From: Ignavibacteriota bacterium
GTDB lineage: Bacteria > Bacteroidota > Ignavibacteria > UBA10030
Reading direction: 5' to 3'
Length of the DNA stretch: 64,000 nt
Assembly: GCA_963701295.1 (NCBI GenBank)
Contig: OY969585.1
Coordinates: 1,120,001-1,184,000 of the forward strand
Part shown: in pieces, positions 25,032 through 42,786 of the stretch
Layout of the letters: each line of letters begins with the position of its first letter
Numbering within the stretch: position 1 is the first letter of the stretch
Made by a program: the position numbers and the translations under genes
The notes under the pieces: model-generated
Told to the model about the DNA's origin: nothing
Seen by the model: only the letters and a program-made list of their open reading frames with translations
Database searches by the model: none

Positions 25032-25458
25032 CAATCTGCGCTTCAATACTTAAGCATACGATTGTACAGGGTATTGACTCATCTCGTTTTTCTTGTTTAC
25101 TGGGGTTACGTAAAGATGAAAAGAACAACTGTCAGTCCCTCGCGTTTTTTAGGAAGAATCTTACAAAAGAAAGTCGCTTGAAAAATATTTTTCATGCCTA
25201 TTGACAAATAAATAAAAAAGTACCATGTTGTTCCAGCAATGGTTATACTATGACGAGATAGTACTATTTGCTGACGCCAAATATTTCATTTTATTTCAAT
25301 TCAATTTACTCTATTTATTATTGGAAGAGAATAGAAAATCCTGAGAGATTTAGATGGGTAAAGTGGTATAACAAATACAGCGCCTTATAACTTCTTGGAT
25401 TTCATATTTGTGATTTTTTGTTCCCTTTGTATAAAAGCAGACCATAAGTATTGTTTTT

Positions 25459-26028
25459 ATGAAAGAATCGTTTCCCAAAGCAATATTCTCGCGAAAACGG
25501 ATCGCTTTAATAATAGTATTTTTAATTATTACAATATTCGTTATAGGCTATTTATACCTTCAAAGCCAATTCGATTTTCCTCCTCCTATCATAGGAGAAA
25601 AAATGTCGCCAGCGATAGTACAAACACTTGATGGTAAAAATGTATCTATTTATTCATTCCTTGTAAAAAAAAGTATCGTAATGTTCTTTTGGACAGATTG
25701 TTCTCATTGTAAGAATGAAATAACCGATATACTTTCGTTGTATCCTGTTTTGAAAGATTCAATGAATATCGTTGGTATTTCATTTAGTGGTAAAGAACAA
25801 ACTGTTGACTTCATTATAACATCGGGAATTAAATTTCCCGTATTCCGTGATGTGAACTGGGAAGCCAAAAATAGTTTTCATGCAAATGTAACTCCATCGA
25901 TATTTTTTGTAGATTCAAGACAGCGATTAGTAAAGTATAAATTTGGAGAGCAAAGTAAAAAGCAATTGGGTGCAATGTTGCTTTGGTTTGCTAATATAAC
26001 TCCGGATTCAACACTTAAACAATTATGA
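25459..26028 (+). CDS. Membrane-anchored TlpA/ResA-type thiol-disulfide oxidoreductase
   Basis: N-terminal TM; FFWTDCSHC (CxxC); FPV..D; VTPSIFFVD. Confidence 0.85.
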   Translation: MKESFPKAIFSRKRIALIIVFLIITIFVIGYLYLQSQFDFPPPIIGEKMSPAIVQTLDGKNVSIYSFLVKKSIVMFFWTDCSHCKNEITDILSLYPVLKDSMNIVGISFSGKEQTVDFIITSGIKFPVFRDVNWEAKNSFHANVTPSIFFVDSRQRLVKYKFGEQSKKQLGAMLLWFANITPDSTLKQL

Positions 26029-26561
26029 AGCAGAAAAAAATAATTGCCGCAATAGTTTTAATCGCAAGTGTTGCCGGGCTCAGTGCAATCTGCTGGTTTT
26101 TACAAAAGCCGCATGCAGATAGAATACTCTCAGCTTGGATGATAAATGCGGAATACATTGGCGACGACGGTATTGTCATGCAAACAAAGCACAATAGCTG
26201 CGGGCCCAGCGCTCTGAAAATGATATTTGATCACTACAATATTTCTTCCTCGCTGAAAGAGATTGAGCAGAGTGTCAATCTTACCCAAAAAGGTTCGTCA
26301 ATGCTTGCATTGAAGGAAATGGCAGAACTGAGAGGATTAAAAGCAGAAGGATGGCGCTTCACGTTGGAAGATTTTCTGCGTTCCTCATTTCCATCGATTC
26401 TCTATGTGAATAAGGATCACTACATCGTTGCGGATAGCGTATCTGTGGATGGTAATGTATATGTTTGCGATCCTGCTATTGGCAAACTTCGGATATCTAA
26501 GGAAAAGCTCAATAAAATTTGGGGGGGGGCGAAACGTTGGTGTTTGAGAAAAAGTAAATAG
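26025..26561 (+). CDS. Stand-alone C39 family cysteine peptidase with N-terminal TM/signal
   Basis: MQTKHNSCGPSALKMI (Q-x5-C), G.SM.ALK..AE..GL.A, DHYIV, DPAIG; not fused to an ABC transporter; G9 run near the C-terminus. Confidence 0.88.
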   Translation: MKQKKIIAAIVLIASVAGLSAICWFLQKPHADRILSAWMINAEYIGDDGIVMQTKHNSCGPSALKMIFDHYNISSSLKEIEQSVNLTQKGSSMLALKEMAELRGLKAEGWRFTLEDFLRSSFPSILYVNKDHYIVADSVSVDGNVYVCDPAIGKLRISKEKLNKIWGGAKRWCLRKSK

Positions 26562-26642: not shown

Positions 26643-26742
26643 TGCTCACTGGTTTGTTCATTGCGAATGAAGAAGAAGCACTTGGTTGGCCCCCTTAGAG
26701 CTGAATTGGAATTCGCTGTGAAGAAACGGGCCACAGTGAGCA
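26643..26742 (+). other. About 100-nt imperfect stem-loop upstream of the precursor gene
   Basis: TGCTCACTG (26643) pairs with CAGTGAGCA (26734); GTTTGTTCATTGCGAAT (26652) pairs with ATTCGCTGTGAAGAAAC (26711). Confidence 0.55.
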
Positions 26743-26788
26743 GAAAATAATAAACTAACAATAAACAAATAACATAAAGGAGGTACAT

Positions 26789-26935
26789 ATGAGTGCAGGA
26801 TGTTGGTGGGCTGTAGCAGGAATGGGTGTTGCTATGATGGGTGCCTGTGCTATTACAGGTGGCTTGTCAGCAATCGTTTGGGGCGCTAGTTTGTTGACCT
26901 CAACAGGAGGTCTTATTTCTGGTTGCGGTGGTTAA
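26789..26935 (+). CDS. Putative bacteriocin/RiPP precursor, 48 aa: MSAGCWWAVAGMGVAMMGACAITGGLSAIVWGASLLTSTGGLISGCGG
   Basis: Below the ORF-track cutoff; perfect AAAGGAGGT RBS just upstream; followed by a stem-loop; between a C39 peptidase and ABC exporter genes. Confidence 0.8.
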   Translation: MSAGCWWAVAGMGVAMMGACAITGGLSAIVWGASLLTSTGGLISGCGG

Positions 26936-26946
26936 TCTCAATAGTT

Positions 26947-26977
26947 CTGTTGGGCGGGATGAATTCCCGCTCAACAG
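26947..26977 (+). terminator. Stem-loop after the precursor gene (stabiliser or partial terminator)
   Basis: CTGTTGGGCGGGA-tgaat-TCCCGCTCAACAG, 13-bp stem with one G-U pair; no clear U tract. Confidence 0.6.
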
Positions 26978-27005: not shown

Positions 27006-27758
27006 ATGTATAATTTTAAAATATTGAAAATTATTTATGAGTTAAACACAACTCTTTCGAAGCGTGTAAAAAAGTTTGAGTGGTTTTATATCACTTTAAT
27101 TGGTTTTGCCTGCCTCTTCCTTGGAGTGATAATTGGAGTTCCGTTATTTACAAAATTGGTGAAATTTCGGGACGAAATGGACTTCAAAAATGCATTAAAT
27201 TTTATCCCAATTTTAGTTCTCCTAATTGATCTCATCCCAACGATATTGCGCTATCAGTATAAAACACTTATCGAGAAACGTCATTTAAGTATTTTCCCTA
27301 TAAAAAGATTGCACACACTTTGGTTTCATTATTTTCTCTGGCTCTCTGATATTAAAAATGCTACTTATATCGTTTGTTTATTATCATTTCAAATATATTT
27401 CCTTGCTCTGTCTATGTTTATTGGTGCTCTTTTGAGTTCATTGTTATGGTTGTTTTTCTTTCTAACAGTAATAACTGGATATCTCATTTTATTTGAATTG
27501 TATAGTGACGTCTTAATGAAATATCGACAACACGCAATAAGCTTTTTTTTTCTTCTGTTAATCTTGGTGAATGCTATAAGAATTATCGGTCGTGAAGACT
27601 TTTATTCCTCTATTCCAATCACTAGCTTTGTGGGAAACGGGCTCTATGCGCTTTCTGTCGGAAACTTTTCTGTTGCTTCATGGAATCTCTTGCTACTATT
27701 ATCCTCGTTTTCTATAGGCGTGTCACTTCTTATCTTCTTAAACCCTAAGAGACGATGA
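27006..27758 (+). CDS. Putative ABC-2-type exporter permease
   Basis: About 6 TM; LSIFPI motif; start MYNFK after AGAGGA; ATGA overlap with the next gene. Confidence 0.65.
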   Translation: MYNFKILKIIYELNTTLSKRVKKFEWFYITLIGFACLFLGVIIGVPLFTKLVKFRDEMDFKNALNFIPILVLLIDLIPTILRYQYKTLIEKRHLSIFPIKRLHTLWFHYFLWLSDIKNATYIVCLLSFQIYFLALSMFIGALLSSLLWLFFFLTVITGYLILFELYSDVLMKYRQHAISFFFLLLILVNAIRIIGREDFYSSIPITSFVGNGLYALSVGNFSVASWNLLLLLSSFSIGVSLLIFLNPKRR

Positions 27759-28426
27759 CTTATTATCGGTTTATTCTTTTGTTAATAACTCAATTCAAAT
27801 TATTGAATCGCTATTTAAGGATTCCGGTGCTATTTATTCTACTTTTTCTTTATACATTTGCTTTTGCTTTTCTAAAACATGCTTTTGGTAAACCTATTCA
27901 TCTTCCATTCGTAACGATGATTATTAATATTTTATTCATCGGTTTTCTTTTCAGTGAATATTTCATAGCAGGTGTTAATGAAAAGATATTCTACGCAATC
28001 TTTTCATCAAAAATAAGAAATATAGTATTAACGAATAATGTCGCTTTAATGATTATTATTTGGATTTTGCCAATACCAATATTTATCATCGAACTTATTT
28101 ATTTCTCATCAACATGGCATGAAATATATGATGCCTTGCAGTATGTAGTTATAACAACGCCTGGTTATGTTTATCTATTAGACATATTTTCTACATCTAT
28201 AAAAAAACCAACACGATATATTTCTACGTTTGTACAAATGTTTCTTCAAGTAATCAATATTCTTCTTGCATCTACTCCGTACGCAATATTGCACTTATGG
28301 AGCACATCTAATATCCTTTATATAATTGTCTGTCTGTTCATATTTTGTTTTTGGTACTTTTATGGAGTTACAAGTATTGTCAACTATTTTCGTCAGAGTA
28401 TAATCGGAGCTATTCAAAACCAATGA
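27755..28426 (+). CDS. Putative ABC exporter permease / immunity membrane protein
   Basis: About 6 TM; translationally coupled to both neighbours. Confidence 0.65.
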   Translation: MTYYRFILLLITQFKLLNRYLRIPVLFILLFLYTFAFAFLKHAFGKPIHLPFVTMIINILFIGFLFSEYFIAGVNEKIFYAIFSSKIRNIVLTNNVALMIIIWILPIPIFIIELIYFSSTWHEIYDALQYVVITTPGYVYLLDIFSTSIKKPTRYISTFVQMFLQVINILLASTPYAILHLWSTSNILYIIVCLFIFCFWYFYGVTSIVNYFRQSIIGAIQNQ

Positions 28427-29208
28427 ATGCGATTGAAATACAAGACCTACAAAAAACCTATAAGAATAAGGTAATTGCATTAAATTCATTGAATCTTAAT
28501 GTTCCAAAATCTTGTATTTTAGGATTGCTTGGTCTAAACGGTGCTGGAAAATCTACAACCATCAACATACTCGCAGGTATTTTACAGAAAACTGATGGAC
28601 GTATTCTCATTTATGACAAAGAGATTAATGATGATGAGTATGAATACAAGAGTTACACTGGATTTGTGCTCGAGCGACCACACTATTTTGAAAAGCTCTC
28701 CGTAGAAGAGTACTTAGAATTTGTCGGTGCGATGTATGGTCTTGATGTTCACGAAATAAAAAAGCGGACAAATGAGTTACTTGAGTTACTTGAACTTCAA
28801 AGTAATAGGAGGCAATGGATTGAAACTTATTCAGCCGGAATGAAGAAAAAAGTTTCGCTTGCCGCTGCGATCATCCACAATCCCCAATTGTTAATTCTTG
28901 ACGAGCCGCTGGAGGGAATAGATCCAATCTCAGTAAAGCGAATTAAAGATATTCTGAAACTAATGGTACAAAACGGTGCAGCGATATTAATAACTTCTCA
29001 TGTTCTTGATACAATAGAAAAAATTTGCGATGAAATTGCAATAATAAATAAAGGAGAAATCATCTTTCGATCAAAAACTGAAGAGATTCGAGCTAGAATT
29101 AAAAACGAATTTACTCATGAAACCTATCAATCATTGGAAGAAATATTCATCGATGTCGTTAATAATAAGAATGGAGAAAAGCCGAAAGGAAGATTATCAT
29201 GGCTATAG
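28423..29208 (+). CDS. ABC transporter ATP-binding protein
   Basis: GLNGAGKSTT, YSAGMKKK, LILDEP, TSH; start MNAIEI overlaps the upstream stop (ATGA). Confidence 0.95.
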   Translation: MNAIEIQDLQKTYKNKVIALNSLNLNVPKSCILGLLGLNGAGKSTTINILAGILQKTDGRILIYDKEINDDEYEYKSYTGFVLERPHYFEKLSVEEYLEFVGAMYGLDVHEIKKRTNELLELLELQSNRRQWIETYSAGMKKKVSLAAAIIHNPQLLILDEPLEGIDPISVKRIKDILKLMVQNGAAILITSHVLDTIEKICDEIAIINKGEIIFRSKTEEIRARIKNEFTHETYQSLEEIFIDVVNNKNGEKPKGRLSWL

Positions 29209-29909
29209 CACTATCCAATATTGTAAATATATTTGCAATCCCGAATGATGTTTTTCAAAACATTAAAACAAGCCCGAAATGGCTTATAGCATTTTTATTT
29301 ATGTTTATTGTAAGCGCAACCTGTGGATATTTTATGGAACCATTCACACAAAAAGTTATGGAACACACTCTTTCCGCTAAAATGAGCGATGAGCAAGTTC
29401 GGCAAACTTTGGATGTGGCTTCAAGATTTCATTTTCTTTTGCTTTTGTTCTCTGCTGTTCCATTATTTGCAAAATGGCTGTTTATTTCGTTATTCCTATA
29501 TTTGGGTGCAATTCTATTGAATGCAGAAAAAACGAATTTTAGAAATATTTATTCAGCCGTAGTTCATTCAGAACTTATTTTATTGCTCATGCTTATGTTG
29601 AATGTCCTTATTTTGCATGTTAAAGGAGTAGAGTCAGTAAATAATATAACAGATCTTAACGCAATTATTGGATTAGAATACTTTCTTGGAGATAAAATAC
29701 ACAATATACCTTTGTACACTTTCCTTAATAACTTCAATGTCTTTTCGATTTGGTATCTTGTCATCCTCATAATCGGCATATCGGTTATTTGCCAAATAGA
29801 AAAATGGAAATCTGCAATATTAGTCTCATCAGTGTTGTTGCTGGGTGTAGGTGTCCAAGTTGCTTTTGTTTCCTTGTCCGAAAATATGCAGCATATGATG
29901 GGGAGTTGA
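29199..29909 (+). CDS. Yip1 family membrane protein
   Basis: IFAIP..VF..IK..PKW, F..IYS.V.HS, NVFSIW..VILIIG; 5 TM. Confidence 0.75.
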   Translation: MAIALSNIVNIFAIPNDVFQNIKTSPKWLIAFLFMFIVSATCGYFMEPFTQKVMEHTLSAKMSDEQVRQTLDVASRFHFLLLLFSAVPLFAKWLFISLFLYLGAILLNAEKTNFRNIYSAVVHSELILLLMLMLNVLILHVKGVESVNNITDLNAIIGLEYFLGDKIHNIPLYTFLNNFNVFSIWYLVILIIGISVICQIEKWKSAILVSSVLLLGVGVQVAFVSLSENMQHMMGS

Positions 29910-30161
29910 ACGTGGGTAATTGAAATTTTCTTCCGAGTTTGTGAACTACCTGTTTATGTTTATTGACACAATACAACGAGCTATTCATAAAGCCAATCCA
30001 AAATATTATTATCTACAATTTTAACAAATTCAGATGAATTAAGTATAACACTACGATATTCCGTTAATTTCCTAGTTCTAAGCAATTGGGCTTTAGCGTT
30101 AATTATAATCTTTAATTTGGGTTTGGGAATATATATAGCGTGTTGTGATAGTGAATACACT

Positions 30162-32651
30162 ATGAAAAATAAAATAGCATCCTTCTTCGATTATTCATTT
30201 ATAGGGATCACTTACGCCTTAATATTTGCGACAATTTATGGATTGTTCAACCTCAGCATTTTATTTTTTATTGTGTTCGTGATCTATTTGGTTAAAAATA
30301 TTTTCCTCGATGATTTTAACTCTGATATATTCCGTTATACGTGGTTTGATTTAGCGATTCTATTGGTTGCTGTTGCAGAGGGAGTAAGCTATATCGCCTC
30401 AACTTATCATGAGAACAGCTTTTACAGTGTTGCCGATATTTCTTTTTTTATTCTTTTCTATTATTGGGTAAGATTTAATCTAAAGTACGATTATCAGCGA
30501 AGAGCAATATTTTTATTTATAACGGTTCTAGGAGTATATTTATTTTTAGACGGCATGTTGACATTTCTTTCGGGTTACTCTCAAATGAAGTCGGCTGGTT
30601 TAAACGACTTTAATGAGTTCAGGCACCTCCTTTCTTTTGGCTCACCAGTTGGCACACCAACTGCAGAATGGAGTACAATTTATCTCGCATGCCTGCCGTT
30701 TTCATTAATACTATTTTTTACAAAATTCAAAAAGGATAAACGGGAATCATTGCTTTTATTGATTCCGGCAATCTTTATTTTAACAATCCCTGTGATTTCG
30801 TGTTTCAGGGGAATGTATTTTGCTATTGCATCTTTTGCACTCTTTGGAAGCGCTTTATTCCTATTGTATAAACTATCTTCCTTTAGGAAAGTTCTTCTGT
30901 TTAATTCGTTATTTTTCTTTTCGATAGGATTGGTTGTTGTCATATCACCTTTCTTCAAACCTGTATTGACAACTATTTCTATGTTTCAAACTATGTCACA
31001 AGTCCGTAGTTTTGAAGGCAGGAAAAGTCTTTGGAAAACAGGTATCGAGATGATAAAGGATCATCCACTCACAGGAATTGGCTCTAACAATTTTCCAATA
31101 AAGTATTTCTCGTATAAAGATCAAAAAGATAACACACCTTATGCAGGCAGAGTTTTTAACACATTTTTGCAGATTACGATCGAAAAAGGATTGATCGGTT
31201 TGTTTGCGTTTGACATTTTAATAATTGCATTCTTCTTTGTTTCTCACCGAAAGATTAAATTATTAACCGATAATTGGGACCAAAAGGCTACTGTCGTTTT
31301 ATTTATGAGCGCGTTTACAGCAATCATTATAAGAGATTTAAGTTATTCTTCTATATTTTATAATAGAGGGGCAGATCTGCTCATTTGGTTTATGTTTGCT
31401 GACAATGCTCAAGTGCCCAATAATAAAATTTCTTCAGATTCTAGTTGTCGCAAAAAAGCAATCTTACTCTTTCCAGTTCTTATTGGCTCAATTATATTCT
31501 TGCCAATTGCGTTGAATTCTATTCAAAAAGGGAAAGCAGAAAGTCAACTTCTTTCATTTATCGAACAATTAAATCATAAAAAATCTGTTGATGCTCAACA
31601 GAACATCGAATCTGCAATTCAGTTATGTCCAGAGAATGCCTATTATAGAGCCTGCCGAGGATTGTTATCGGATAGAATGATAAATAACAAGTTCAATGTC
31701 GAAGAGTATCTTGAAAATAAATCGTTGTTGACCAAGGCAGACAAAGAGCAGATTAAGATAGGGATTACGTCTTATAATAAAGCGTTAGAGTTAAATCCGA
31801 CTGATGATGAATTCTATCATAATCTTGGATGGTTATATATTATCAATCAAGATGAGAAGCAGGCTGAATATTGTTTACATCAATCAATTCAAATAGACAA
31901 TAATGCGGCAATTCCTCATATCAGTTTAGGGATCTTAAAAGAAAGAAATGGCGAGAAGGACAGTGCTCTAACAGAATATAGTACTGCTATTTGTAGGCTT
32001 CCGAGCATTTTGGATTCACAATTTTTTCTAGATTTGAAGAAACGAATGCCATTAGAATCAAAAGAATTGGTTATTCACAATATACAAGATTTGGAAAAGG
32101 AATTTCAAACAAGCCATGATCCCACAATTGCAGCAAAACTTGCTAAATTTTACCTTTTTCAAGGTGAAAAACAAAAAGCGATACAATTGTTTGAGTGGAC
32201 CACAAAGAAATTGCCGAGTCTTTCTCGCCCATGGCTCTATCTTGGCGATCTATATCAATCTTCTAACGAGGATGAAATGTTCCGATGTTATCAAAAAGCA
32301 GCTTTTCTTGATAAATCAGATGTTTATCCCTTGCTACGATTAGGTCAATTCTATGAACAGAAAAATCGAATCAATGATGCAATACAATATTTCAAACGGT
32401 CGATAAGAGCTTCGAATCTTCAATATGCTTTTCATTCAAGTAAAATTGCAGCCATGTATTGTTTAACTTGCAAGGATGAAAGATTGGTTATAAAAGATTA
32501 CCTTGTGCCCAAAGGATTATTAACCTATTGTGCTCCATTATTTGATATTTCATCTGTTTATGATCGTCTTTCAGGTCTCTATACCAGGCAAGGAAACAAC
32601 AAAAAAGCGGAAGAATATACGAGACTTAGTAAAGAATTGATATTTTATTGA
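30162..32651 (+). CDS. O-antigen ligase-like (Wzy_C) membrane protein with C-terminal TPR repeats
   Basis: About 13 TM; S.RG; R..LWKTGIEMIKDHPLTGIG..NF; N.FLQI.IEKGLIG; TPRs (YNKALELNP...YHNLGW). Confidence 0.85.
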   Translation: MKNKIASFFDYSFIGITYALIFATIYGLFNLSILFFIVFVIYLVKNIFLDDFNSDIFRYTWFDLAILLVAVAEGVSYIASTYHENSFYSVADISFFILFYYWVRFNLKYDYQRRAIFLFITVLGVYLFLDGMLTFLSGYSQMKSAGLNDFNEFRHLLSFGSPVGTPTAEWSTIYLACLPFSLILFFTKFKKDKRESLLLLIPAIFILTIPVISCFRGMYFAIASFALFGSALFLLYKLSSFRKVLLFNSLFFFSIGLVVVISPFFKPVLTTISMFQTMSQVRSFEGRKSLWKTGIEMIKDHPLTGIGSNNFPIKYFSYKDQKDNTPYAGRVFNTFLQITIEKGLIGLFAFDILIIAFFFVSHRKIKLLTDNWDQKATVVLFMSAFTAIIIRDLSYSSIFYNRGADLLIWFMFADNAQVPNNKISSDSSCRKKAILLFPVLIGSIIFLPIALNSIQKGKAESQLLSFIEQLNHKKSVDAQQNIESAIQLCPENAYYRACRGLLSDRMINNKFNVEEYLENKSLLTKADKEQIKIGITSYNKALELNPTDDEFYHNLGWLYIINQDEKQAEYCLHQSIQIDNNAAIPHISLGILKERNGEKDSALTEYSTAICRLPSILDSQFFLDLKKRMPLESKELVIHNIQDLEKEFQTSHDPTIAAKLAKFYLFQGEKQKAIQLFEWTTKKLPSLSRPWLYLGDLYQSSNEDEMFRCYQKAAFLDKSDVYPLLRLGQFYEQKNRINDAIQYFKRSIRASNLQYAFHSSKIAAMYCLTCKDERLVIKDYLVPKGLLTYCAPLFDISSVYDRLSGLYTRQGNNKKAEEYTRLSKELIFY

Positions 32652-36307: not shown

Positions 36308-36489
36308 CCCTAACCAGGCGCTCCCGCCCAACAAGACGGCGGGCAAGCAAGCTAACGGTTGCCAGTTGGGTACGTAAATCATGGCGAGCATAGGTTTAGT
36401 GCAAAATTGAAAGTTATCAGCGTGAACTTGTTTCGTTTAGTACAATTTGAAAGTTTTCATTGCCGCAGCTTAGCCGCCATCCGTTAGGT
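36308..36489 (+). other. attC1 (182 bp) with 25-bp hairpin insert at 36324-36348
   Basis: CCCTAAC-CAGGCGCTC[insert]AAGCTAAC ... GCAGCTTAG-CCGCCATCC-GTTAGGT. Confidence 0.85.
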
Positions 36490-36540
36490 GGCATTGTGAC
36501 GGGCAGCGGTGCTGGATTCAATCAAAGGATACAATACATA

Positions 36541-37212
36541 ATGAATTCTAAACTACTAAGTATTACTCGTATCGTTAGTTTCATCATGACAATATATATT
36601 TGGCGGGTGGTGCAATTCGCAGAGTTTTCTCAACTCGCAGAGTACACTCTGACCATCGGACCAATTTTGTTTGTTTTTCCAGTTGTCTGGATCGGACGGA
36701 AGGCGGTCAACCTCAAACCGACTTTTGAGCGTGTTGCCTGGATTACGAGCTTTGTTCATATCGTCTTAATGGTTTTCTTTGGTGTATCGATCATCGAAGC
36801 CATCAGACTGTTTCAAATCTCGCGTGGCATCACAATACCATTACCTGTCGAAATTGGAACGGTACTCCTTTATCTTACCGGTGCGTGTTTGTCATTGACC
36901 GTGGTAAATCTCGCATTAAGCGGACTCGGAGCACCATTTGCTATTGCATTGAGCAAGCGTCTTGCAAATCGCTGGATGTATCGTTGGACGAGAAATCCGA
37001 TGGTTTTATGCTGTCTCGCCATGCTTCTATCGGCTGGCATTTATTTACAGTCTCTTTATTTTGTTTTGTGGGTTGTTTTACTTGTAACACCGGCGTGGAT
37101 TTACTTTTTGAAAGTGTATGAAGAGCGCGAGCTTGAAATCCGTTTCGGTGCATCATACTTGGATTACAAAACTAATACTTCTTTTCTCTGGCCAAGAATA
37201 CCGAGGAATTGA
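36541..37212 (+). CDS. Cassette 2: PEMT/ICMT-like membrane methyltransferase family protein
   Basis: G.GAP, MYRWTRNPM, EEREL..RFG.SY..YK..T. Confidence 0.8.
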   Translation: MNSKLLSITRIVSFIMTIYIWRVVQFAEFSQLAEYTLTIGPILFVFPVVWIGRKAVNLKPTFERVAWITSFVHIVLMVFFGVSIIEAIRLFQISRGITIPLPVEIGTVLLYLTGACLSLTVVNLALSGLGAPFAIALSKRLANRWMYRWTRNPMVLCCLAMLLSAGIYLQSLYFVLWVVLLVTPAWIYFLKVYEERELEIRFGASYLDYKTNTSFLWPRIPRN

Positions 37213-37234
37213 AATATAATTGTATAACAATGCC

Positions 37235-37454
37235 GCTTAACCAGGCGCTCCCGCCCAACAAGACGGCGGGCAAGCAAGCTGACGGAATGAGCTCATTGCA
37301 ATTAGCATGGCTGGTGGTGGGTTTAAGTTATTATAATTAACTTTTTTGTACCTCGTTGGTTGAGACAAATAAATATGGTTATCAGCATGAACTCGTTTCG
37401 TTTTGTGGTTAATTAAACTTGGTCACGCGGCAGCTTAGCCGCCATCCGTTAGGC
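37235..37454 (+). other. attC2 (220 bp) with the identical 25-bp insert at 37251-37275
   Basis: GCTTAAC-CAGGCGCTC[insert]AAGCTGAC ... GCAGCTTAG-CCGCCATCC-GTTAGGC. Confidence 0.85.
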
Positions 37455-37501
37455 GGCTTCCATAAACTATGGCAGTCAATTAATGAAAAGGGGATCAGAT
37501 A

Positions 37502-39562
37502 ATGAAATTCTTGCTAAGATATTTTGAGAAATTCATATTGTATTTGCAAACCGCCTTTGGGGTGAAACATATTCACACAGTAATCATCCTTTTTCTATTG
37601 TTGATTAACCTAGTGCTGATAGTGGTGGTTTTCCTTCTTTCGAATTCACTCGCCTCTATCTTAACGAATATGGCACTAAATTTCCTACAATTCTTCTTTG
37701 TTGTAGTCCTTTTAGGTGTCATCTTGGGGATCACATCTAATTACTTGTACGACAAAGCTATAGCCGCACTAAATAATCCTATCGGAAGAGCTATAAGCGA
37801 AAGCAGATTGATTAATTACTTCCTACCTGACAAAGAAAGTGAGAAGGAGAGAAGAACAAATTTAACAGTTGAGCGTTTGCCCAGCATGAAAGGCGAAGTT
37901 TGCATATTCGCCATTGCAGCAACAAGCTACCTTCCCAAGAAAGATGATGCAACACGTTTCTCCCAATTATTCATCAGCAAGTTAATTAACAAAGAAATTA
38001 ATTTGCGACTATTATTACTCAATCCCTACAGCCAAGCTTCGAAGTTTAGATATGCGCGAGAAGAAGGTATTGATGTGGATGTTATTTGTGAAAGAGAGAG
38101 GAACGAAATGAGATTTGAGAGATCGGCGCTCTATGGTGACATTGTGAACACTATGGATAAAGTCAAAGAGCTAAGAACTAAAGGGGCCAACATAGAATGC
38201 AGACTTACCAACTTCGAGCCTGCAATATCAATGATGTACACCAGTGACTTTGTTTATATTGATATACTTTCCTTGGGAAGGTTAGATGAAACGACTAAGT
38301 TCACAAAGCAACGAACTACTTTGCCAATCACCGAATTCTCCTCAGATTCTGCGTATTATCAAGTCGCCAAAAGCCATTTTGAATACCATTGGAAATATGG
38401 AATCACACCAGATGAATTTGGTTACTATAAACCCGCTTTACAAGAAAGCTTCTTTGGTTTCTCCTATACGGGCTATAGGTTGATCAAACAGCACGATTCT
38501 TGGATTTCTATTGATCCAGTAGTTGGATGCAACGCGGGTTGTAAATACTGTGTTCTTCAAACAACATTTCGGAATGATATTAAACCGAAAGTCTACGCAA
38601 GTCCGGAGACCATTGGTGATCACCTTCGAGAAAGCAAATTCTATCATGAAGACGAAGTCCTTTGCCTATTCAATTACACTGATGCTCTACTAACCGAAAA
38701 CAAAGAGCGTTTGATAAGTTGTCTTGAGACCCTTAAGGAAAAGCAATTTCGAAATTGGGTATGCATTCCCACAAAACACCCATTTGATGTGAAATTCGCT
38801 CACAAAATAATAGACTCGTATCATCATAACAAGTTGATCTTTCTCATTTCCCTTTCGGGCATGCCAGAAGGATATGAGCCGAGTATTAAATCAGCAGAGA
38901 TTGTTGCCACTATGAAAATGTTGAAAGAACTTAAGATACCACTCATTCACTATTGGAGGCCTGTTACCAAATTAAATTCCAGTGATCAGCATATTGAAAG
39001 TATTTTGGACAAAGTCGATGAGTACGCAAATTGTTCTGTGATTGTTGGCTTAAAGGCTAGCGATGCTCTCAATGACTACTATGTAAATGAGGGGCTTATA
39101 AGTAAGAGTGAATTAAAGGTTCATGGAGATTATTTACCAGAAGGATTCATGAAGAAGGTCAAAAATATTCTGAATCAGAAAGGCAAGGTATATCCTATCT
39201 ATCTTCACGCATCCTGTGCCGTAAGCAAGATAACAAGTCAGCCTGACTATAATGGAACTATGCTCAGAAACGATGTGTGTTCATTGTCTGCTACAGGAGC
39301 CTCATTATGTATTTCAGACCAAGAATCGATATGCCAGAACTTCTTAAAACGCACACAGCAAGAATTTGACAAGACCAAATTCTATGAGATTATTAGAGAG
39401 ATTCTTCCCAGAATGGATATGAAGATTGATGGCAATACGATCGAACTATTGGATCCTGTTTATCAAGAAGATCTTATTTATCTCGTACATCGACTCAGGC
39501 AACCAGTAGTGGCGAAACAGATATTGTACACCAATCAGTATGTTGGTTCAATACTTGCCTAG
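37502..39562 (+). CDS. Cassette 3: TM + DUF5919-like + radical SAM fusion protein
   Basis: 2 TM; LRLLLLNPYS...R..E, ECRL..FEP, HFE.HW (DUF5919/PLD-like pattern); DPVVGCNAGCKYC (CxxxCxxC); YEP, IHYWRPV. Confidence 0.75.
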   Translation: MKFLLRYFEKFILYLQTAFGVKHIHTVIILFLLLINLVLIVVVFLLSNSLASILTNMALNFLQFFFVVVLLGVILGITSNYLYDKAIAALNNPIGRAISESRLINYFLPDKESEKERRTNLTVERLPSMKGEVCIFAIAATSYLPKKDDATRFSQLFISKLINKEINLRLLLLNPYSQASKFRYAREEGIDVDVICERERNEMRFERSALYGDIVNTMDKVKELRTKGANIECRLTNFEPAISMMYTSDFVYIDILSLGRLDETTKFTKQRTTLPITEFSSDSAYYQVAKSHFEYHWKYGITPDEFGYYKPALQESFFGFSYTGYRLIKQHDSWISIDPVVGCNAGCKYCVLQTTFRNDIKPKVYASPETIGDHLRESKFYHEDEVLCLFNYTDALLTENKERLISCLETLKEKQFRNWVCIPTKHPFDVKFAHKIIDSYHHNKLIFLISLSGMPEGYEPSIKSAEIVATMKMLKELKIPLIHYWRPVTKLNSSDQHIESILDKVDEYANCSVIVGLKASDALNDYYVNEGLISKSELKVHGDYLPEGFMKKVKNILNQKGKVYPIYLHASCAVSKITSQPDYNGTMLRNDVCSLSATGASLCISDQESICQNFLKRTQQEFDKTKFYEIIREILPRMDMKIDGNTIELLDPVYQEDLIYLVHRLRQPVVAKQILYTNQYVGSILA

Positions 39563-39604
39563 CGAATTGATGGAAAGACAAACTATGTGAATAAGCAAGT
39601 AACC

Positions 39605-39764
39605 ACCTAACAAATCGTTCAAGCTGACCGTATGAGCGTTAGTACCGATAAGCATGGCTTGCATAGGTTTTGGTTCTTAATAATAAACTTATCAGCATGA
39701 ACTTGTTTCGTTTTGTATATTTTGAAAGTTATCAACGTGGCAACTTAGTTGCCATCCGTTAGGC
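39605..39764 (+). other. attC3 (160 bp)
   Basis: ACCTAAC-AAATCGTTCAAGCTGAC ... GCAACTTAG-TTGCCATCC-GTTAGGC. Confidence 0.88.
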
Positions 39765-39799
39765 GGGCAAAAAACAATTACAAATACAGGAGAATGAAA

Positions 39800-40564
39800 A
39801 TGTATATGCAAAGAAAAAGAATGCTATTCCTTTATTTAATCTTGATGTCAGTCACGATTAACTTACAATCGCAAGATACATCATCAGAACGAAATTCTTT
39901 GAAAGCAGGTGCTTGGGCATTGCAGTTTGGGATTTCCAGTAACTTTACGCTCACATCATTTCAAGGAAGTAATATAGCGTTCAAATATCAATTATCCGAC
40001 AAGAGCGCTCTTCGTGGAGGAATAACAATTAACGGTAGCACTAATGATGGAACCACTTCAAATTCTGGATCAATCGATGATACCAGCTATGGTACTGCTC
40101 CGGGAAGCAGCTCAACGGAATCCGCAACTGCCTCTTTTGTTCTCCAATACTTATGGTATATGAATCCAAACGGCCCCGTACATTTCTACACTGGACTTGG
40201 TCCATTAGTTTCATACAGCTATTCCAAGTATTCCACAAATAATCCTTATTCATCTACTGTATATGATAGCGGAAGTTATCGCGGGTATTGAAATCGAAAT
40301 ATAAGTACTTCAAACTCTACCCAATGGGGATTTGGTGTATCGTGTGTTATTGGCGTCGAATGGTTTGCTTGCCAATGGTTATCCTTGCATGCAGATTACA
40401 ATGAAAGCATCCAATATCGATGGGGTTCGAATTCATCGAATCAAGAATGGTCTTCTTCGACCAGTCCAAATTTTATACCTTCTCAAACTAATAATTCTGG
40501 AACAAGCAAAGGATGGTCTTTAAGCAGTTCTAGCGTTGCATTCGGGCTAAATATATATTTGTAA
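39800..40564 (+). pseudogene. Cassette 4: outer-membrane beta-barrel protein interrupted by an in-frame TGA (40289-40291)
   Basis: Frame continues past TGA: NRNISTSNSTQWGFGVSCVIGVEWF...SSSSVAFGLNIYL*, ending 9 nt before attC4. Confidence 0.75.
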
Positions 40565-40572
40565 ATTTGCCC

Positions 40573-40789
40573 GCCTAACCAGGCGCTCAAGCTCTGCTTG
40601 TCCAGAAGAATGAATCACAGCCGGAGGCCTGAGAATGTCATTGCACGAAGTGCAATACAAATTTATTGGATGCAAAATTCATGGCGAGCAAAGGTTGAGT
40701 ACAAATTTGAAAGTTATCAGCATGAACTTGTTTCGTTTAGTGTATTTTGAAAATTATCAGCGCCGCAGCTTAGTTGCCAATCGTTAGGC
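40573..40789 (+). other. attC4 (217 bp) with internal replacement segment at about 40594-40667
   Basis: GCCTAAC-CAGGCGCTCAAGCT ... GCAGCTTAG-TTGCCAATC-GTTAGGC. Confidence 0.85.
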
Positions 40790-40830
40790 AGCAACACAAA
40801 GTATCTTACTAATATAACTAGGAGAAAATA

Positions 40831-41142
40831 ATGACAAACAATCTTACCCCACAGGAAGAAAAGCAACTTCTTGAGATGCTAAAAAACCAGCCGCGAGATA
40901 TTCGTTCTATCAATATTACTGCAAATCTTTTTCTGGTATTTGGTGGTTGTTTTATAGTTGGCACGGCGTTTTATTTACTCAAACACTTTACGGATAATGT
41001 AGCATATTTTGTAGGTCTACCAAATTTCGTTGGAGGGATGATATTGATCGTTAGTTATATTTTGCTTTCGAGGAGAGTAATCCGAATGAAACAGTTAAAC
41101 TCAATATTATCAAAGCTGCATAAAATGATTATTGCTGCCTAA
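40831..41142 (+). CDS. Cassette 5: hypothetical 2-TM protein
   Basis: AGGAG RBS; stop codon lies inside the attC R'' box (GCCTAAC). Confidence 0.8.
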   Translation: MTNNLTPQEEKQLLEMLKNQPRDIRSINITANLFLVFGGCFIVGTAFYLLKHFTDNVAYFVGLPNFVGGMILIVSYILLSRRVIRMKQLNSILSKLHKMIIAA

Positions 41143-41290
41143 CCAGGCGCTCAAGCTGACGGAATGAGCTGGGTGCGAAATTCATGGCGAGCATAGGTTA
41201 GTACAAGATTGAGAGAACCAGTATGAACTTGTTTCGTTGGTTGCATTACGAAACTTATAAACGCCGCAGCTTAGTGCCTGTCCGTTAGGG
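41137..41290 (+). other. attC5 (154 bp), uninterrupted reference form
   Basis: GCCTAAC-CAGGCGCT[C]AAGCTG[A]C ... GCAGCTTAG-TGCCTGTCC-GTTAGGG; two extrahelical bases at canonical positions. Confidence 0.9.
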
Positions 41291-41313
41291 CTATAATATT
41301 AAAGGAGTTCAAA

Positions 41314-41871
41314 ATGGATAAACATGAATTCTTAAAACAGCAATATATTTCATTACGAGAGGAAATTAAGGAAACTAAGGCACGTATTTTTAAAACCTTA
41401 GGTTTCGGTATTATTGCTGTTCCTGCTGCTAATTTTCTAGGAGAATCCTATCACATTGATGTTGTTATTCTATCGTTACCATTACTTGTCATTGTTCTTG
41501 CATTTCTATATTTATCAGAGAATAATGCTAAGATGAGATGTGGTAGATTTATAAGAATCCATATTGAAAGTTTATTCAAAGATATCCCTGGTTGGGAAAC
41601 CTGGCTTGAAAATCCTGAGGAGGAATATCAAACAAGAATTGTTGATATATATCTTGATGCTTGTTTTTATATCCTATTCTTCATTTACTATGTTGGTTCT
41701 GTTTTTCTTGAAACAAGATTTTCAATTCAAAATTTTCATCTTTTGATTACTGCTATGATACTTGGCTTTTACGTAGCAATTGGTATTTGGTTCTTAATAC
41801 ACTTAATTACACATATTCAAGTCTCTACGACAATTAAAATGGATAAGGACAAATTACAACATAAGCCCTAA
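41314..41871 (+). CDS. Cassette 6: hypothetical 4-TM protein
   Basis: AAAGGAG RBS; QYISLREEIK...R.GRFIR..IE......GWE; stop inside the R'' box. Confidence 0.8.
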   Translation: MDKHEFLKQQYISLREEIKETKARIFKTLGFGIIAVPAANFLGESYHIDVVILSLPLLVIVLAFLYLSENNAKMRCGRFIRIHIESLFKDIPGWETWLENPEEEYQTRIVDIYLDACFYILFFIYYVGSVFLETRFSIQNFHLLITAMILGFYVAIGIWFLIHLITHIQVSTTIKMDKDKLQHKP

Positions 41872-42082
41872 CCAAGTGCTCAAGCTCGGCTTGTCCAGAA
41901 GAATGCATCACAGCCGGAGGCCTGAGAATGTCATTGCACGAAGTGCAATACAAATTTATTGGATGCAAAATTCATGGCGAGCAAAGGTTGAGTACAAATT
42001 TGAAAGTTTTCAGCATAAACTCGTTTCGTTTTCAGCAACTTGAAATTTATCAGCGCCGCAGCTTAGCGCCGATCCGTTATAC
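41866..42082 (+). other. attC6 (217 bp), near-duplicate of attC4
   Basis: CCCTAAC-CAAGTGCTCAAGCT ... GCAGCTTAG-CGCCGATCC-GTTATAC. Confidence 0.85.
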
Positions 42083-42152
42083 CGCTTGCGTTTTAAGGTA
42101 AGTTGGCCGAATTTAGCAACACTATTAATAAAATGAAATAAGGAGATAAACC

Positions 42153-42527
42153 ATGAATATTTTCTTATGGGTTCTTCAAATTCTTCTTGCCTTGCATACC
42201 ATCATGGGTGCAGTTTGGAAGTTTTCCAATTCGGAACAAACCGTACCTTCCTTGAGTACAATTCCTCATGGATTTTGGCTGACGTTGAGCGTCATTGAGC
42301 TGCTTTGTAGTTTGGGTTTGATCCTCCCTGCACTAAATAAGCGACTAGGCGTCCTGGTGCCGGTCGCGGCGGTTTGTATTGCAGCTGAAATGCTGCTCTT
42401 TTCCGGATTGCATATTTACTCCGGTGACACGAATTACAACCAAATGATATATTGGCTCGTCGTGGCTGCCATATGTTCGTTTATTGCTTACGGTAGATTT
42501 GTGTTGAAACCTCTTAGACGTCCTTAA
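42153..42527 (+). CDS. Cassette 7: DoxX family membrane protein
   Basis: MNIFLWVLQILLA....GA.WK, IELL..LGLILP, FIAYGR. Confidence 0.85.
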   Translation: MNIFLWVLQILLALHTIMGAVWKFSNSEQTVPSLSTIPHGFWLTLSVIELLCSLGLILPALNKRLGVLVPVAAVCIAAEMLLFSGLHIYSGDTNYNQMIYWLVVAAICSFIAYGRFVLKPLRRP

Positions 42528-42573
42528 ATAAGAAGTCAATCAATATGAGTTATGCAAAAAAATGTCGCAAGCG

Positions 42574-42761
42574 GTATAACCAGGCGCTCAAGCTGACCGG
42601 ATGAGCGCCCGCCCAAAGATAAACATGGCGGGTAAATGGGCACGTTAAGCATGGCGCGTAGAGGTTCAGATGTTTAATAATAAACTTTTCAGCATGAACT
42701 TGTTTCGTATAGTACATATTGAAAGGTATCAGTGGCGCAGCTTATGCGCCATCTGTTAGGG
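42574..42761 (+). other. attC7 (188 bp) with CCCGCC/GGCGGG hairpin at 42608-42632
   Basis: GTATAAC-CAGGCGCTCAAGCTGAC ... GCAGCTTA-TGCGCCATCT-GTTAGGG. Confidence 0.87.
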
Positions 42762-42786
42762 CGCATTCAAAATAAAGGAGAATTAA

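Follow-up and report, generated by a model that had tools for sequence, protein, structure and literature searches.

Several described systems come close to the locus analyzed here. In PCAT/AMS systems for class II double-glycine bacteriocins (the LahT147 protease domain, 6MPZ, and ComA), the C39 peptidase is fused to a transporter; double-glycine leaders carry hydrophobic residues at positions -4, -7 and -12 (PMC10885120). A precedent for a periplasmic C39 comes from the Fap system, in which FapD is a stand-alone, exported C39 peptidase and the substrates are exported by Sec; the same source describes periplasmic C39 peptidases as uncharacterised and their targets as unclear (PMC5557850). Clusters for circular bacteriocins are described as containing a SpoIIM/DUF95 protein (PMC8659200), and the leaderless class, with aureocin A53 as its prototype, as cationic and composed of four to five helices (PMC11580447). 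The mining tool IIBacFinder, as presented, treats Sec and double-glycine leaders as alternatives (bioRxiv 2024.07.15.603639).

We analyzed a 64,000-nucleotide stretch of an Ignavibacteriota genome (GenBank GCA_963701295.1, contig OY969585.1, positions 1,120,001 to 1,184,000; hereafter, the window) around an ORF of 48 codons. This ORF lies in a same-strand run of genes encoding an anchored thioredoxin, a stand-alone C39 peptidase, the peptide, two membrane proteins, an ABC ATPase and a Yip1 protein (Table 1).

Table 1. Features of the peptide locus, in window coordinates.
Feature	Position	Strand	Remarks
Membrane-anchored thioredoxin-fold oxidoreductase, ResA/TlpA-like, CSHC	25459..26028	+	Pfam AhpC-TSA E 3e-13; NCBIfam ResA E 4e-16, below cut-off
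Stand-alone C39 peptidase	26025..26561	+	N-terminal hydrophobic anchor (hydropathy); Pfam Peptidase_C39 E 4e-27
G9 run	26521..26529	+	After it, the conserved WxGETLVF-type strand lies in another frame (three-frame reading)
Structured RNA, 100 nt	26643..26742	+	Between C39 and precursor; long rod in precursor 5' UTR
Shine-Dalgarno AAGGAGG	26777-26783	+	5 nt before ATG of 48-aa ORF
Core-only ORF, 48 aa	26789..26935	+	Corresponds to 44-90 of the 90-aa orthologs, with one additional Gly; lacks signal peptide and leader
13-bp hairpin	26947..26977	+	3' of 48-aa ORF stop; z -6.5, 0/200 shuffles
Membrane protein	27006..27758	+	No Pfam/NCBIfam match; 16-30% identical to same-slot proteins
Second membrane protein	27755..28426	+	Hydrophobic, no family match; slot also filled in L044, L049, L053 and L060
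ABC transporter ATPase	28345..29208, likely start 28426	+	Pfam ABC_tran E 2e-27
Yip1/YknW-family membrane protein	29199..29909	+	Pfam Yip1 E 1e-14; NCBIfam YknW E 2e-19, below cut-off

Compared with PCAT systems, the locus has the same C39 fold and catalytic residues, and full-length members of the peptide family have the same hydrophobic -4/-7/-12 leader ending in G-G/A/S and a Gly/Ala-rich hydrophobic core. Unlike PCATs, the window C39 has no ABC transporter fused to it and carries an N-terminal anchor, and family precursors place a predicted Sec signal ahead of the double-glycine leader, so that the C39 cut would be periplasmic; the 48-residue allele has neither signal nor leader. As in Fap (FapD) and Fil (FilB), the C39 is stand-alone with an export signal or anchor, its orientation at the window locus being predicted only, but it scores far under the cut-offs of the NCBIfam FapD (37.5 bits versus 330) and FilB (43.2 bits versus 475) models. 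Where Fap has amyloid subunits, the family has small and variable cores bracketed by Cys, behind a canonical leader; thioredoxin, Yip1, ABC and RNA are absent from the Fap parts as described in PMC5557850.

Circular and leaderless clusters, as far as they are described in these sources, resemble the locus in having a small hydrophobic peptide gene followed by membrane proteins, an ABC ATPase and Yip1, and, as in circular clusters, there are transporter genes (the ATPase and two membrane ORFs). Unlike circular clusters, the locus has no SpoIIM/DUF95 protein, and neither membrane ORF has a Pfam match; unlike both types, it has a peptide that is not cationic, a dedicated C39 and thioredoxin, and a predicted closure by disulfide rather than backbone. 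The 48-residue ORF shares the lack of a leader with leaderless bacteriocins, whereas all seven of its orthologs have one. Family precursors also resemble Sec-dependent class II bacteriocins in size and in their heuristically predicted Sec signal, but carry Sec and double-glycine leaders in tandem, unlike the classes IIBacFinder is described as using.

Translation of the ORF agreed with the composition reported in a first-pass annotation: there are no D, E, K, R or H residues, cysteines stand at 5, 20 and 46, and GG motifs stand at 24-25, 40-41 and 47-48. Counting nested starts, the genome contains 26,601 ORFs of 30-70 aa that begin with ATG; 18 of these were uncharged, including four nested starts of this same ORF, and it was the only one without a charged residue among the 75 ORFs of that size with a strong Shine-Dalgarno sequence. 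Absence of charge is nonetheless normal for the Gly-rich core class described below and not special to this ORF; its glycine content (21%) and cysteine span (42) are equally ordinary for that class. The AAGGAGG motif occupies the position of the Shine-Dalgarno sequence before signal-bearing precursors in relatives, and the hairpin after the stop codon is likely a 3' stabiliser or partial terminator; we rejected a mobile repeat as its identity, given its single copy in the genome. A promoter scan returned 6 sites versus 8.7 expected, and its sole terminator-like site, at chance level, fell within the ORF. Upstream of the thioredoxin gene, a non-coding segment (25178-25338) is 91% identical in the related locus L075 compared to 71-82% for nearby genes, and is likely the promoter or regulatory region of a predicted operon. 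No paralogs of the 48-mer were found elsewhere in the genome by tblastn. Because 33 of its 48 positions are invariant across seven full-length orthologs, the ORF is, by conservation, a real gene slot, with translation in the source genome predicted only.

Those orthologs were all longer than the query. A near-length search returned no homologs of 26-84 aa, while a search of longer proteins returned two of 90 aa (74% identity over 98% of the query) whose clusters held four further orthologs; phmmer over 1.84 billion representatives had a sole match, one more ortholog of 90 aa. All seven distinct proteins, 74-77% identical over the core, have 43 extra N-terminal residues that end in IIGA or VIGA plus one residue and are predicted to comprise a Sec signal and a canonical double-glycine-type leader. 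The initiator Met of the 48-residue ORF aligns to internal Met44 in 7/7. Cys5, Cys46 and GG24-25 are kept throughout, whereas every ortholog has Val for Cys20, Ser for Gly41 (turning GG40-41 into GS) and one G in place of the terminal GG. The first-pass annotation had looked to homologs with conserved Cys and Gly residues, which exist for the first group of positions and not for the second. It had also stated that there is no acidic ELxxxEL leader and no Sec n-region; a signal peptide and leader are indeed absent from the ORF, and are predicted in its orthologs.

The 43-residue head was not found elsewhere in the genome by tblastn, and the 5' UTR, structured RNA and Shine-Dalgarno sequence align with same-genus loci right up to the ATG; together, these results place the gap just after the start codon. 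Ortholog DNA was present in none of 85 family genomes and none of 400 class genomes, and we infer the junction, its microhomology and a slippage deletion between the two ATGs. In 46 of the 47 loci that carry the RNA, it is followed by a signal-like ORF (basic-then-hydrophobic start; 42 by script parsing and 4 by visual inspection, some truncated at contig ends); only the window locus departs from this.

An AlphaFold model of the 48-mer (pLDDT 73, pTM 0.41) has helices at 3-23 and 26-46 with a turn at GG24-25. The earlier suggestion that Cys5 and Cys46 close a helical hairpin fits this prediction, as well as the invariance of both cysteines in 7/7 orthologs. Foldseek returned no match to the model in the PDB at E<=10, and ESM similarity of the peptide to class IIc bacteriocin clusters reached only 0.77-0.78, which is a lead.

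The proposed association of the peptide with a C39 and an oxidoreductase holds. A thioredoxin homolog lies directly upstream of the C39 in 48 of the 50 loci with enough upstream DNA. The active-site motif was CxHC in 39/57 thioredoxin motif calls, which we take to have an oxidising character by analogy with DsbA. The window C39 (178 aa) has Gln53, Cys59, His132 and Asp149, has 6MPZ as its closest solved structure (E 8e-19) and, used as a query, found no second C39 in the genome. Of 66 distinct C39 tails, all others have the last strand (55 match the strict motif and 10 are near variants identified by eye), and the window C39 alone lacks it. The frame shift falls at the G9 run, which is exceeded in length by one only of the genome's 147 G/C runs of >=6, and could be a homopolymer read error.

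Matches to the C39 were found in 9/61 relative genomes and, using a profile, in 27/86 family genomes. Further scanning contributed 17 loci from genomes and, from metagenomes, the best 80 of 106; family counts are based on 69 distinct C39 loci, and the named records are labelled Bacteroidota/Ignavibacteria, Aminicenantia, Thermoanaerobaculia and Holophagales. Signal peptides and membrane topology across the family were called by a hydropathy heuristic, not SignalP. In relatives, the peptide slot holds precursors of ~70-140 aa with a basic-hydrophobic N-terminus, a short leader ending in G-G/A/S/N and a Cys-bracketed core. A leader rule based on positions -7, -3, -2 and -1 parsed 40 of 41 distinct full precursors, with 3/40 mis-parsed on inspection. 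Position -12, which is outside the rule, was aliphatic in 38/40 parsed precursors, in agreement with the -4/-7/-12 pattern as given in PMC10885120, and position -8 was E/Q/D in 33/40. Pfam and NCBIfam searches with nine precursors returned nothing above cut-off; weak BLB8/JUQZ-1 matches covered the signal/leader region only, and JUQZ-1 is not linked to a C39 in the account of PMC11747845. A match of L003 to HblD (19 of 650 bits) was dismissed as Gly/Ala bias.

Yip1 was found downstream in all 23 loci with 4.5 kb of downstream DNA, and an ABC ATPase in 13 of these 23. All 13 ABC loci encode long, Gly/Ala/Ser-rich, mostly uncharged cores (Gly 12-29%, span 30-51), with an additional Pro-rich core in L056, and all 10 loci without ABC encode short four-Cys cores (Gly 0-12%, span 19-33); because the loci are kin, this association is a pattern, not a statistical test. 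At the window locus, the first membrane protein is likely an ABC-type permease and the second likely its partner; ESM look-alikes of the first (0.92-0.96) include DUF5687/ABC_tran_2/ABC_export clusters, a lead only. The flanks of L075 are 82% and 76% identical to those of the window while the core and accessory genes between them are different, a cassette swap that would resemble polymorphic toxin-immunity cassettes.

Several further features were observed around these loci. A Wzy_C (O-antigen ligase-like) and TPR protein (30117-32651) follows Yip1 in the window and likewise in L053 and L075, and could glycosylate exported proteins or could merely be a flank. Five repeats in 36380-42781 match L044 9008-9140, which is downstream of Yip1 there. 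The cores of L002, L003 and L010 have a polar tail after the second Cys, ending in Y-x-F-x-R-V-N, possibly a signal for outer-membrane export or recognition. Loci that have short four-Cys cores and no ABC (L063 5151-7523, L064 7361-9685 and L051 2113-4485) often encode a DUF5686 + CarboxypepD_reg protein and a protein of ~170 aa that begins like a signal peptide and matches no Pfam family; these are candidates for an outer-membrane channel and periplasmic immunity. Distant loci L097, L100, L103, L107 and L110 carry two or three different signal-plus-GG precursors in tandem, with no RNA match.

The region between the C39 and the precursor gene encodes a structured RNA in which 26643-26651 pairs with 26734-26742 to form an outer helix, and an apical loop (26687-26692) pairs with a 3' bulge (26728-26733) to form a pseudoknot. 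In an alignment of 46 distinct sequences, 94.2% of 1607 cells were paired and compensatory changes on both sides were found at 29/35 pairs, a level reached by 0/500 shuffles; slid controls were 37-46% paired, in a comparison favoured by derivation of the structure from the same alignment. At least four Watson-Crick pairs of the pseudoknot form in 46/46 sequences and at least five in 43/46, and over nine distinct bulge types the mean was 5.4 pairs versus 3.5 when permuted (0/5000). G-U (259 cells) outnumbered A-C (17), indicating that the + strand is the one that folds; on these counts, and with one strong copy in the genome, we rejected an attC-like or minus-strand element. The window RNA has 3/30 pairs broken versus a median of 1, and 10/46 sequences have at least three broken.

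The start codon lies 27-55 nt downstream of the RNA in 42 of 43 script-parsed loci and at 112 in the other. A covariance model matched 25/86 family genomes, with the C39 present in 23 of them (partly by construction), one of 31 further loci (L054), 0/143 other genomes of the phylum sampled beyond family f1, and none of the Aminicenantia, Thermoanaerobaculia or Holophagales loci; no sequencing runs were listed as carrying the RNA. Among the genomes searched, it was restricted to f1. Of the 11 matches that had not been used for training, 8 stand before an intact Cys peptide with a signal, the GG leader being missing in at least two, and the others precede a frameshifted Cys peptide, a transposase-like ORF and a 254-aa protein with a hydrophobic N-terminus. 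The RNA also stands before Cys peptides that have a signal peptide but lack a GG leader in L144 (1619-1860), L171 (G070:C5) and L165, where no neighbouring C39 was seen; these point to a Sec-only sub-family. In L163 and L164 (genus g43), a thioredoxin-like ORF, the RNA and the precursor are adjacent while the C39 match is on another contig.

No Rfam family matched 26643-26742 at E<=10. The c-di-GMP-II riboswitch is a bent rod in the 5' UTR, contains a kink-turn and has an apical loop that pairs with a 3' junction near the base. The RNA described here has a similar topology, with a pseudoknot from apical loop to 3' junction, but differs in its lack of an Rfam match, its longer rod and a junction fully used by the pseudoknot; any ligand pocket would be hypothetical. 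It has a purine-rich internal loop, with no fixed tandem G-A pattern by eye among 16 rows. With its 100-nt length, strong covariation and fixed place 5' of secreted-peptide genes, it is a candidate new class of cis-regulatory RNA.

In intact loci, the pseudoknotted RNA would stabilise or regulate the precursor transcript from its 5' UTR. Based on the basic-hydrophobic N-terminus, Sec would then export the precursor and a signal of ~20 aa would be removed. The inner-membrane-anchored C39, predicted to face the periplasm, would cut after the L(-12)...M(-7)...G-G/A leader, and the anchored CxHC thioredoxin would form or shuffle an end-to-end disulfide that locks the hydrophobic helical hairpin. 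The peptide may target competitor membranes, and the ABC module together with Yip1 would either move it or protect the producer.

The 48-residue ORF is probably a head-deleted, non-producing allele of such a precursor, in which an in-frame deletion between the start ATG and the internal ATG removed the first 43 residues. In the source genome, the peptide would be neither exported nor cleaved by the C39, which itself lacks its last strand through a separate change; a non-producer that retains its genes for protection would be expected to show this combination. Loss of the precursor recurs in the family: in L005, the core is interrupted by an insertion that occurs 11 more times in that genome, L165 has a frameshift in an A run, and in L170 a transposase-like ORF directly follows the RNA. 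The window locus retains an intact Shine-Dalgarno sequence, RNA, hairpin and core frame, as well as intact copies of all the genes downstream, and the core substitutions look conservative, so the loss would be recent or tolerated; the intact parts suit a recent deletion and, equally, a peptide still in use. In the latter case, the uncharged hairpin would be a working leaderless variant, made directly and inserted or exported by ABC/Yip1, and the frameshifted tail of the C39 would be consistent with a dispensable enzyme. The ORF begins one residue after the predicted mature N-terminus, and Yip1 occurs in leaderless-bacteriocin clusters as described in PMC11580447, yet we consider this improbable: the short form is a singleton (1/47 RNA-bearing loci), its three cysteines are at odds with the even counts in correctly parsed family cores, a peptide that does not reach the periplasm would be unlikely to form the conserved disulfide, and aureocin A53 is described as highly cationic and its class as having four to five helices, compared to an uncharged peptide with two. 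An assembly or consensus artefact, with the missing 129 nt and the G9 shift as long-read errors in a genome that has an intact 90-aa precursor and C39, is quite improbable. The genome is a single contig from a long-read assembly, G9 is an extreme homopolymer, and the junction has no read coverage, the contigs of X1-X3 missing the peptide, junction and G9; however, the deletion keeps the reading frame, with a Met-to-Met register, Logan and NCBI/ENA (possibly the same sample) have identical versions of the shifted C39 (178 aa) and the flanking proteins, and a near-identical intact precursor should top the longer-protein search, where the best matches reached only 74%. The first-pass annotation had instead taken the 48-mer as a complete precursor with non-canonical C39 recognition (an internal cut at ITGG, tail trimming or cyclisation) and a free, reactive Cys20. 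The C39 and oxidoreductase are indeed adjacent and GG24-25 is invariant, but the latter is a predicted helix turn, the canonical site of the orthologs lies upstream in the missing head within a leader of the canonical pattern, and there is no SpoIIM/DUF95 match in the locus; with Val for Cys20, GS for GG40-41 and a single terminal G, internal cutting, trimming, cyclisation and a conserved free Cys are not supported, and we regard this account as extremely improbable.

For intact products of the family, a bacteriocin-like function is, by analogy, the most likely role, and on balance we lean towards an antibacterial one. They may alternatively be signals or surface/structural subunits, as in the Fap amyloid or Fil pilus, which would be compatible with the deletion and is possible, if rather unlikely. 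The weak scores of the C39 to the FapD and FilB models, the DUF5686 + CarboxypepD_reg protein at several ABC-less loci and the non-cationic cores are consistent with such a role, while the high variability of the cores, swapped at one site together with downstream genes, the frequent inactivation of precursors and the lack of any two-component or LuxR-type gene among the ORFs of 20 long loci (by eye) argue against it. A broader proposal, which we consider doubtful as a whole, is that Sec export, a periplasmic double-glycine cut and disulfide locking form a distinct route for a polymorphic antibacterial arsenal in Ignavibacteria-like Bacteroidota and Acidobacteriota-type lineages, controlled in one family by a new pseudoknotted cis-regulatory RNA (a riboswitch or nuclease-resistant cap), with the window allele as a core escaping to a leaderless state.

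Taken alone, the 48-residue ORF is an ordinary feature, most likely a damaged allele. The family to which it belongs (an anchored thioredoxin, a stand-alone membrane-anchored C39, a signal-plus-GG precursor with a Cys-bracketed, swappable core, and Yip1) looks undescribed: we found no description of the system or the RNA in a literature search covering the main text of mostly open-access papers, and the bioRxiv supplements of IIBacFinder could list such precursors. Because tandem Sec and double-glycine leaders fall between the classes of mining tools, such peptides would likely be missed. The family unites a free membrane-anchored C39, a canonical substrate motif and a redox partner at one locus, and dozens of diverse, predicted disulfide-closed cores from poorly cultured bacteria become testable by synthesis.
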